Source of the DNA: Escherichia coli
Lineage (GTDB): Bacteria; Pseudomonadota; Gammaproteobacteria; Enterobacterales; Enterobacteriaceae
Reading direction: 5' to 3' (one strand)
DNA length: 64,000 nt
Assembly (NCBI RefSeq): GCF_003991155.1
Contig: NZ_CP031293.1
In this document: one piece after another, positions 5,816 through 7,405 of the stretch
Position numbering within the stretch: the stretch's first letter is position 1
How the letters are laid out: every line of letters starts with the position of its first letter
Notes under the pieces: model-generated
Seen by the model: only the letters and a program-made list of their open reading frames with translations
Database searches by the model: none
What the model was told of the DNA's origin: nothing
Program-made: the position numbers and the translations under genes

Positions 5816-7093
5816 ATGAAAACCAAAGTTGCTGCTATTTATGGCAAGCGGGATGTCCGTCTGCGCGAATTTGAGCTGCCAGAAATTACCGATAATGAAC
5901 TGTTAGTGAATGTAATTTCTGACAGCGTTTGTTTATCCACCTGGAAAGCGGCGTTACTCGGTAGTGAACATAAACGCGTCCCCGACGATTTAGAAAATCA
6001 TCCGGTCATTACCGGGCATGAATGTGCTGGGGTTATTGTCGAAGTGGGTAAAAATCTCACTGGCAAATATAAAAAAGGCCAGCGTTTTGTATTGCAACCG
6101 GCGATGGGGTTACCAGGCGGGTATTCAGCGGGCTACAGCTACGAATATTTTGGCGGTAACGCCACCTATATGATTATTCCCGAAATCGCCATTAATTTGG
6201 GCTGCGTATTACCCTATCACGGCTCTTATTTTGCTGCGGCGTCGCTGGCAGAGCCTATGTGCTGCATTATTGGCGCTTATCATGCCAATTATCACACCAC
6301 GCAATATGTTTATGAGCATCGCATGGGCGTCAAACCTGGCGGCAATATTGCGCTACTGGCGTGTGCAGGCCCGATGGGAATTGGCGCTATCGATTACGCT
6401 ATTAACGGCGGCATACAACCGGCGCGGGTGGTGGTAGTCGATATCGACGACAAACGCCTGACGCAGGTACAAAAGCTGCTGCCGGTGGAACTGGCGGCCA
6501 GTAAAGGCATTGAGCTGGTGTATATGAATACCAAAGGGATGAGCGATCCGGTCCAGACGCTGCGGGCGCTGACGGATGATGCCGGATTTGATGACGTATT
6601 TGTCTATGCAGCGGTGCCTTCAGTCGTCGAGATGGCTGATGAATTACTGGCTGAAGATGGCTGCCTGAACTTCTTTGCCGGTCCGACGGATAAAAACTTC
6701 AAAGTGCCGTTTAATTTCTACAACGTCCATTACAACAGTACGCACATTGTCGGCACGTCCGGCGGTTCCACGGACGACATGAAAGAGGCGATTGCCCTTA
6801 GCGCCACGGGGCAGTTACAGCCGTCGTTTATGGTGACCCATATCGGTGGCCTGGATGCGGTGCCAGAAACCGTGCTCAATCTGCCGGATATCCCTGGCGG
6901 TAAAAAACTCATTTATAACGGCGTGACCATGCCGCTGACCGCCATTGCCGATTTTGCCGAAAAAGGCAAAACCGATCCGCTGTTTAAAGAGCTGGCGCGG
7001 CTGGTTGAGAAAACGCACGGTATCTGGAATGAACAGGCCGAGAAATATCTGCTGGCACAATTTGGCGTTGATATTGGGGAGGCCACGCAATGA
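5816..7093 (+). CDS. yggP: Putative zinc-type polyol dehydrogenase, 425 aa
   Basis: ORF 5816..7093; MDR-family dehydrogenase motifs ([15 protein letters not shown]); matches recalled YggP. Confidence 0.85.
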
Positions 7094-7405
7094 TGTCCCT
7101 GGCGTGGCCATTATTTCGCGTTACGGAACAGGCAGCGTTGGCTGCCTGGCCGCAAACCGGCTGTGGCGACAAAAATAAAATTGATGGCCTTGCGGTCACC
7201 GCGATGCGCCAGGCATTAAACGACGTTGCTTTTCGTGGGCGAGTGGTTATCGGCGAGGGGGAACGATATCCTCTTTAGCGCTACGGGCGTGACGGGCGGC
7301 GAGTTGGTGAACGGTATCCAACAGACGGCGAATGGGGTGCGGACGCAGACATTACTGATCGGCGGCGCGGACCAAACGTGTAATATAATAGACTCCCTGC
7401 ATTGA
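7090..7405 (+). pseudogene. yggF: yggF (GlpX-like fructose-1,6-bisphosphatase) with an internal deletion and frameshift
   Basis: N-terminal 58 residues [20 protein letters not shown]...VVIGEGE are followed by RYPL-stop at 7278; the normal C-terminus [20 protein letters not shown]...IIDSLH is encoded in another frame up to 7405; only ~315 bp remain of an expected ~966-bp gene. Confidence 0.75.

Follow-up and report, generated by a model that had tools for sequence, protein, structure and literature searches.

[quoted passage not shown] YggF is less efficient than Fbp, and a ΔyggF mutant uses glycerol normally under aerobic conditions, its growth being reduced only under fermentative glycerol conditions (PMC8719807). 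Since YggF is a minor enzyme and the other isozymes are present, its loss is expected to be tolerated. Such a loss has in fact been recorded. Touchon et al. (2009; PLoS Genet 5:e1000344) list yggF in their Table 5 as specifically absent from B2 strains, the B2 set of that study being CFT073, UTI89, S88, APEC O1, 536, and ED1a, with no ST131 strain among them; none was available in 2009. The yggF entry in the table does not carry the mark for genes whose status still holds once E2348/69 is added, which fits the intact yggF that is found in E2348/69. The absence reported for B2 is the same lesion as the yggF remnant described here, and PGAP labels the 5′ part of this remnant "fructose-bisphosphatase class II, incomplete, pseudogene" in every carrier genome that was opened. 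The yggF pseudogene is therefore already known, being both annotated and published, and it is an ordinary lineage-specific loss. Whereas Touchon et al. (2009) gave presence and absence only, the present analysis gives the exact junction, the 9-bp repeat on which it lies, the specificity of the perfect repeat to B2, and the intact state of the gene in ST131.

Two other kinds of deletion in E. coli invite comparison. The first is the loss of scpA-meaB-scpB-scpC (sbm-argK-ygfGH), which stands in the same Table 5, and which has likewise left a remnant of a metabolic operon that is annotated as pseudogene fragments. It differs from the yggF deletion in that it is ~4.3 kb long, older, and present in all sampled B2 genomes, whereas the yggF deletion appears to be confined to one B2 sub-clade. 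The scp deletion is also found in the DNA analyzed here (at ~19216–20331), and it is common to all sampled B2 genomes, including ST131 and E2348/69, and not found in K-12. Because it is shared by all of these, it is older than the yggF deletion, and the nested order of the two losses is consistent. The second comparison is with lacI, in which deletions reportedly arise by slipped mispairing between short direct repeats. The yggF deletion resembles these in that a perfect short repeat bounds the lost segment, one copy of the repeat stays behind, and neither a mobile element nor filler DNA is found. It differs from them in that the yggF event is known here from its product alone.

The DNA analyzed is a stretch of 64,000 nucleotides from an E. 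coli phylogroup B2 chromosome (contig NZ_CP031293.1 of assembly GCF_003991155.1), referred to below as the window, for which yggF had been called an internally deleted pseudogene on the basis of its letters alone. The comparisons below establish that lesion to the base, and they indicate that a redundant yggF was very probably killed by a single short-homology deletion in the ancestor of a B2 sub-clade, by which it has been inherited since. The cluster that contains the remnant (Table 1) has the same gene order, cmtB-cmtA-yggP-[yggF]-fumE-yggC, in K-12, E2348/69, and EC958, and yggP is of full length in 10 of the 10 genomes compared, as are fumE and yggC in all genomes compared. As the original prediction had it, the yggP stop overlaps the start of the remnant: the TGA at 7091–7093 and the ATG at 7090–7092 together read ATGA (7090–7093). 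Further downstream, fumE and yggC overlap by 4 nt. The window copy is like yggF of K-12 (b2930), which encodes a class II, GlpX-family fructose-1,6-bisphosphatase, in its place between yggP and fumE, in its first 58 and last ~47 codons, and in the ATGA overlap, and differs from it in lacking 650 bp (residues 59–274), in its shifted frame, and in the loss of the catalytic core.

Table 1. The yggF remnant and its neighbors in the window (positions counted from the first base of the window).
Feature	Position	Strand	Description	Basis
cmtB	3942..4385	+	PTS mannitol-type IIA component; opens the cmtBA-yggP-yggF-fumE-yggC cluster	ORF; name from the RefSeq annotation of the identical BH100N locus
cmtA	4413..5801	+	PTS mannitol-type IICB component	ORF and annotation
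yggP	5816..7093	+	Zinc-binding dehydrogenase, intact, 425 aa	Pfam ADH_N and ADH_zinc_N
yggF 5′ remnant ORF	7090..7278	+	62 aa: YggF residues 1–58, then out-of-frame RYPL and TAG	Pfam PF03320
Deletion junction	7255..7263	.	9-bp direct repeat GAGGGGGAA, one copy remaining	
yggF 3′ remnant	7264..7405	+	Codons of ~residues 275–321 and the original TGA; +1 frame relative to the 5′ remnant	Pfam PF03320
Untranslated stretch 5′ of fumE	7279..7426	+	148 nt; 21 nt in the intact allele	SD-like GGAAG at 7417–7421
fumE (yggD)	7427..7936	+	MtlR family, annotated as fumarase E, intact, 169 aa	Pfam MtlR, E = 5e-52
yggC	7933..8646	+	Nucleoside/nucleotide kinase family, intact, 237 aa	ORF and annotation

The junction was set by base-by-base comparison with the intact 966-bp yggF allele of E. 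coli E2348/69. The original prediction had put the remnant at about 315 bp of an expected ~966 bp, with roughly 650 bp lost and a change of frame; the comparison confirms this, the remnant, stop codon included, being 316 bp long and the missing segment exactly 650 bp. As 650 is not a multiple of three (it leaves a remainder of 2), the reading frame shifts. The first 174 and the last 151 bases of the remnant have no mismatch to the E2348/69 gene, and the left- and right-anchored alignments share nine bases, GAGGGGGAA, at window positions 7255–7263. Such an alignment had been proposed along with the prediction as a way to the junction and any microhomology, and the nine shared bases are that microhomology. 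Conserved synteny, together with the 174 + 142 nt that are retained without mismatch, identifies the remnant as the ortholog of yggF by descent. Upstream of the junction, the predicted reading holds, in that an ORF of 62 aa opens with MMSLAW, follows the YggF N-terminus, and runs out in RYPL and a stop codon, the TAG lying four codons past the junction. The C-terminus is also, as predicted, encoded in another frame, in a second ORF (+1 frame, 7226–7405) that ends in NIIDSLH and a stop codon. It had been placed about 40 nt beyond the first stop, which was mistaken, as it begins directly at the junction: DILFSATG is read from 7265 onward, from the same bases as the RYPL and stop codons (7264–7278), in the other frame. 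With an intact ortholog in relatives, an internal segment gone, a frameshift, and a premature stop, the locus is a pseudogene by internal deletion.

In intact B2 alleles, GAGGGGGAA occurs at gene nucleotides 166–174 and again at 816–824, 650 bp apart, and both copies are present in all four intact B2-type alleles examined (E2348/69, H105, KE50, and L1PEag1). When the flanks are included, the repeat is 12 nt long with one mismatch, GG[C/T]GAGGGGGAA. The junction itself, GTGGTTATCGGCGAGGGGGAACGATAT, is identical in 5/5 carriers compared. The parental allele thus has a perfect repeat at both ends of the lost segment and the deleted allele a single copy at the junction, as is typical of deletion between short direct repeats. 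The upstream site of K-12 reads GAAGGAGAA, with two synonymous differences from the B2 allele; as its copy is imperfect, only the B2 allele has the perfect repeat. Direct repeats of nine bases number two in yggF, GAGGGGGAA among them, and none is longer. Shuffled sequences hold 2.5 ± 2.2, and since the gene has no more than these, the repeat itself is a chance feature. The informative point is that both endpoints of the deletion fall on it. No mobile element, filler DNA, or signature of site-specific recombination is found at the junction, which is seamless, with flanks that are colinear with and identical to the intact allele.

These features suggest the following course of events. Synonymous changes in the B2-type allele would have produced the two perfect copies of GAGGGGGAA, and this B2-specific perfecting of the repeat plausibly raised the chance of a deletion. 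A deletion between the copies would then have removed one copy and the intervening DNA, either by slipped-strand mispairing or by another RecA-independent short-homology event, a mechanism that is read from its product alone. Through the resulting frameshift, translation coupled to yggP would stop after 62 codons. The loss was probably tolerated because FBPase activity is available from Fbp, GlpX, and YbhA; we infer both this tolerance and the neutrality of the loss.

What has been lost from the protein is evident from its domain. The structures of E. coli GlpX (1NI9, 3D1R, and 2R8T) align with intact YggF from one end to the other (E ~1e-110), and the intact ortholog spans positions 2–307 of the Pfam profile PF03320 (FBPase_glpX). 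In the window, the 5′ remnant matches profile positions 2–58 (E = 5.9e-19) and the 3′ remnant positions 259–307 of 307 (E = 1.3e-10), and these matches on both remnants rule out a chance resemblance. A functional class II FBPase would have a full-length PF03320 domain in one frame; here the domain is in two pieces in two frames. The deleted residues, 59–274, make up about two thirds of the fold and include the blocks that are best conserved when YggF is compared with GlpX, namely DIAVDPIEGT, DGDV, and GGAPEG. The catalytic and metal-binding core of functional members, with DPIEGT at YggF residues 84–89, is thereby gone. The DPIEGT of YggF presumably corresponds to the Thr90 region of GlpX, and the threonine of this motif is said to be the proposed catalytic residue of GlpX. 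Judging from these sequences, the locus would yield no functional phosphatase, and FBPase activity would not be expected of the 62-aa fragment.

The lesion may also act on the genes that follow. The original prediction had raised an effect on yggD and yggC, and the arrangement of the genes makes polarity on fumE and yggC possible. The stop codon, which in the intact allele lies 21 nt ahead of the fumE start, is now 148 nt ahead of it and leaves 148 nt of mRNA exposed, and the tightly packed genes look translationally coupled, to judge by the ATGA of yggP and yggF and the overlap of fumE and yggC. In addition, nonsynonymous differences exceed synonymous ones in B2 fumE (e.g., 5 vs. 2), but the counts are tiny, and a like excess appears against strains with an intact yggF. 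It is nevertheless unlikely that lower expression of fumE and yggC through uncoupled translation, and not the loss of YggF, is the chief effect of the deletion. Both genes are of full length in every carrier examined, and some carriers and non-carriers have identical protein accessions; for example, the same yggC product (WP_000687745.1) is found in the carriers BH100N and UTI89 and in E2348/69 and EC958, in which yggF is intact. The deletion creates no terminator-like site, and the exposed 148 nt are rich in G (A37 C34 G50 T27), unlike a typical Rho-loading site. Moreover, fumE has an SD-like GGAAG of its own 5 nt upstream of its ATG. Scans of both alleles for consensus promoters and terminators gave nothing above the expectation from shuffled sequences, with no signal lost or gained. 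Counts of synonymous and nonsynonymous changes in yggP, fumE, and yggC among carriers are too small to speak on constraint after the deletion.

The distribution of the two alleles was determined in a collection of 5,426 complete E. coli genomes, in 5,414 of which the 1.1-kb region is found. A 44-nt junction probe (window positions 7238–7281), designed so that neither of its halves seeds a match in the intact allele, matched 556 of the 5,426 genomes, once in each, always on the chromosome, and always at 100% identity; a 100-nt probe spanning the junction was covered in one piece in 557 genomes. The deleted segment, represented by a 641-bp core probe, is retained in 4,855. The two states together (557 + 4,855 = 5,412) thus cover essentially every genome that bears the locus. 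Carriers of the deletion include CFT073, UTI89, S88, NC101, ATCC 25922, PA45B, the type strain ATCC 11775, an APEC O1:K1:H7 isolate, and an ST1193 isolate, and their sources include dogs, cats, chickens, a pig, a bat, a koala, soil, and water. A probe for the upstream repeat of the intact B2 allele identified 559 genomes with an intact yggF, among them EC958 and other O25b:H4-ST131 strains, the O127:H6 EPEC strain E2348/69, and H105, a member of ST131 lineage C1 (PMC5543646). The sum of the two groups (556 + 559 = 1,115) is near the 1,111 genomes with flanks at least 99% identical to the window, which places the deletion in approximately half of the B2-type genomes of the collection. The intact allele occurs in K-12, O157, most other E. 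coli, and earlier-branching B2 genomes. This breadth, and the fact that the deleted allele lacks the conserved core of a universal enzyme fold, show the intact state to be ancestral; the opposite reading, in which the other strains gained an insertion, was rejected on the same two grounds.

The persistence of the deletion in a large and ecologically successful clade, with its flanking genes intact and the surrounding DNA recombined, could also be taken as a sign of positive selection for an inactive yggF in the ancestor of the classical ExPEC clade within B2, for instance through removal of an unregulated FBPase or futile cycle, or through rewiring of the cmt operon. In support of such a view, Touchon et al. 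(2009) see a hallmark of selection in the metabolic genes specifically lost in B2. Adaptive loss is improbable, however. There is no convergent inactivation elsewhere, the segment being retained in the 4,855 genomes noted above, and ST131, an equally successful ExPEC, keeps yggF. In K-12, deletion of yggF brings no benefit and is either neutral or mildly deleterious, and since deletions cannot revert, persistence requires no selection. The more specific proposal, that the ancestor of ST73/ST95/ST1193-type ExPEC drew a metabolic advantage from a cmt operon without YggF, the loss of which would then have been selected and not merely tolerated, is more doubtful still. If it were correct, ST131, which has kept both the gene and the slippage-prone repeat, would offer a natural contrast for gluconeogenic and sugar-phosphate control between two ExPEC radiations.

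Whether the deletion arose once or several times cannot be read from the junction itself, as a repeat-mediated deletion yields the same junction each time and the identity of junctions is no proof of common descent. Trees were therefore built from loci of ~40 kb, from the window and six further carriers (CFT073, UTI89, the ST1193 isolate, bat isolate A3, soil isolate SC434, and an O2:K2:H1 strain), the intact B2 genomes EC958, E2348/69, and L1PEag1, and K-12. These eleven genomes, compared over this one region, were brought into a pseudo-alignment on CFT073 coordinates with 30.6 kb of shared sites, and trees were made by neighbor joining with 300 bootstraps. The seven carriers form one clade apart from the three intact B2 genomes in 300 of 300 bootstraps over the whole region, in 286/300 with the left block (ruvX-tkt), and in 300/300 with the right block (epd-pepP), and 36 sites in the 40-kb region are fixed between the carriers and the intact B2 group. 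Near the deletion itself the signal is different. In the central 5 kb, from the prohibitin gene to the ECF island, the carrier clade is not recovered (1 of 300 bootstraps), and in the ~1.4 kb to either side of the junction there is no SNP private to carriers, small trees from these flanks mix carriers with non-carriers, and the carriers are spread over several local haplotypes. Recombination has made a mosaic of the immediate flanks, and the local sequence alone is therefore compatible with a transfer of the deleted allele by recombination or with a second origin.

It is on this mosaic that the case for a recurrent hotspot rests, in which the same 650-bp deletion arose several times independently: the junction would be regenerated by each such event, and the lack of carrier-private SNPs, the several haplotypes, and the central block without a carrier clade are what homoplasy would leave. 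Homoplasy is, all the same, very unlikely. The left and right backbone each unite the seven sampled carriers in a single clade, and among the 60 carriers listed, of 556, none bears an ST131 or O25b label. Deletion between 9-bp repeats that lie 650 bp apart is a rare event, and the 559 intact genomes with the perfect repeat, which are largely from the heavily sampled ST131, indicate that the site is not a high-frequency hotspot. The data favour, as the simplest reading, one deletion in the ancestor of the sub-clade, after which local recombination shuffled the surrounding SNPs and the gene was not restorable. As for the lineage question that came with the original prediction, the deletion is found in 556 of 5,426 genomes, and the seven sampled carriers fall into a single clade over 40 kb. 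Under a single deletion, the event most likely took place in the common ancestor of a large sub-clade of B2, to which the classical ExPEC lineages belong along with environmental and animal isolates, and ST131 and the EPEC strain E2348/69 would have split off earlier, with the gene kept intact. Given the seven carriers and three intact B2 genomes sampled, the loss of yggF appears to mark a sub-clade of B2 and not B2 as a whole.

Two further readings carry little weight. PGAP calls genes over the 3′ remnant, either a 56-aa "fructose-bisphosphatase class II" (WP_369808866.1) or a 32-aa hypothetical protein (WP_250146959.1), and the 5′ ORF keeps its translationally coupled start, from which one might suppose that the 62-aa N-terminal and the 56-aa or 32-aa C-terminal products are functional small proteins. 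This is barely credible, as the calls differ between genomes of identical sequence (56 aa vs. 32 aa), the fragments cover 18 and 15% of an α/β fold that forms one domain, and the catalytic core is in neither, and neither an independent start signal nor evidence of conservation is found. A sequencing or assembly artefact in the window is next to inconceivable, since 556 complete genomes, assembled independently in many laboratories and from many sequencing platforms, share the same junction.

Taken alone, the lesion in yggF matters little, since it removes a catalytically minor and redundant FBPase, and the annotation of hundreds of RefSeq genomes already shows it as a pseudogene. What is added here is the exact junction with its repeat signature, and the observation that the loss appears to mark a sub-clade of B2. 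The statement that yggF is absent in B2 needs correction, as ST131 and EPEC E2348/69 keep the gene intact. As a binary marker, the 44-nt junction is clean and divides the B2-type genomes roughly in half (556 vs. 559); it could serve in typing or, set against the older scp deletion, as a dated landmark.

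In the ECF-type transporter cluster, the gene for the first ATPase has an in-frame deletion of 78 bp between two TGGCGCGG direct repeats. Together with the yggF deletion 2 kb away, it makes two short-repeat deletions. The 26 amino acids lost, at …ISYRWP|GAGKST…, lie immediately ahead of the Walker A lysine and include the glycine that opens the P-loop GDNGAGKST. PGAP labels the shortened ATPase as a normal 199-aa protein. Only 9 of 5,426 complete E. coli genomes carry the 78-bp deletion (three BH100 genomes, K-15KW01, HB37, FDAARGOS_1284, 82.0311, 82.0312, and YP3), and these are exactly the genomes that are 100% identical to the window in the yggF region. 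The ATPase deletion is a marker of the window's own clone.

The RefSeq genome BH100N is 100% identical to the window around yggF and shares the rare ATPase deletion. Over a colinear 47 kb, window positions 1-50000 and the related BH100N locus (L010) are 98.2% identical, with 824 mismatches; therefore, either the window comes from a strain other than BH100N, or the two differ in large recombined segments. The intergenic region between tkt and the prohibitin-family gene holds a complete copy of IS621 (IS110 family) in the window, 100% identical to copies labelled "IS110-like element IS621" in other genomes, while BH100N has IS1397 (IS3 family) at the same site and CFT073, UTI89, and EC958 have no insertion sequence there. 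This intergenic site appears to be a shared insertion-sequence target.

RefSeq/PGAP calls over the 3' remnant of yggF vary among genomes of identical sequence. The call is a 56-aa CDS, "fructose-bisphosphatase class II" (WP_369808866.1), in some genomes and a "hypothetical protein" of 32 aa (WP_250146959.1) in others; each looks like an artefact of annotating the yggF pseudogene. Within yggP, 744 bp ahead of yggF, an intragenic σ54-binding site, CTGGCGGCAATATTGCA, has been reported for K-12 (Bonocora et al., 2015; PMC4591121). The counterpart of this site has G as its last base in both the window and CFT073, and C in EC958, a difference from the reported K-12 site that changes the conserved TTGCA element.

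Coordinates of features in the window and in the related loci of EC958 (L014), L1PEag1 (L019), and E2348/69 (L015)
Feature	Sequence	Coordinates	Strand	Remarks
Complete IS621 copy	window	1303-2579		tkt-prohibitin intergenic region
IS621 transposase ORF	window	1407-2387	-	Pfam DEDD_Tnp_IS110 and Transposase_20
Prohibitin-family gene	window	2656-3564		between tkt and cmtB
Counterpart of K-12 σ54-binding site	window	6336-6352		inside yggP
PGAP calls over yggF 3' remnant	window	7235-7405, 7307-7405		
fumE/yggD	window	7427-7936		
ECF transporter cluster	window	~8618-11616		between yggC and epd
First ATPase gene of the cluster	window	8618-9250	-	
Junction repeat of the 78-bp deletion, TGGCGCGG	window	9175-9182		
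scpA(sbm)-meaB(argK)-scpB-scpC operon remnant	window	~19216-20331	-	junction near 19369-19384
srsR pseudogene	L014	31830-32726		
srsR pseudogene	L019	31369-32265		
srsR pseudogene	L015	31358-32236		

The five-gene ECF cluster (two ATPases, a T component, an S component, and a PPC-domain DNA-binding protein) and the prohibitin-family gene were found in all B2 genomes examined and are missing from K-12. The yggC gene, which adjoins the ECF cluster, is unusually diverged from K-12, with 51 synonymous codon differences and 40 nonsynonymous ones; the corresponding counts for yggP, a longer gene, are 42 and 13. Among B2 alleles of fumE, nonsynonymous differences exceed synonymous ones (e.g., 5 vs. 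2 and 7 vs. 2), both between carriers of the yggF deletion and against strains with intact yggF, in counts too low for interpretation. Unlike fumE, the adjoining yggP shows 14-20 synonymous vs. 3-7 nonsynonymous differences among B2 alleles.

In the scp operon remnant, scpA retains its 5' part, covering Pfam MM_CoA_mutase positions 1-291 of 512, and is joined there to the 3'-terminal ~150 nt of scpC; about 4.3 kb is absent relative to K-12. The scpA fragment is 966 nt or 927 nt long depending on the genome, the 39-bp variant adjoining the junction. This loss corresponds to "argK ygfGH", entered as absent in B2 (Touchon, 2009, Table 5). In all three sampled B2 genomes with intact yggF, the annotation marks the adjoining LysR regulator gene, srsR, as a pseudogene (truncated or with an internal stop); srsR is intact in K-12 and in every sampled carrier of the yggF deletion, a pattern reciprocal to that of yggF. 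Because the scp deletion is common to all B2 genomes sampled, including ST131 EC958 and E2348/69, it is older than the yggF deletion.
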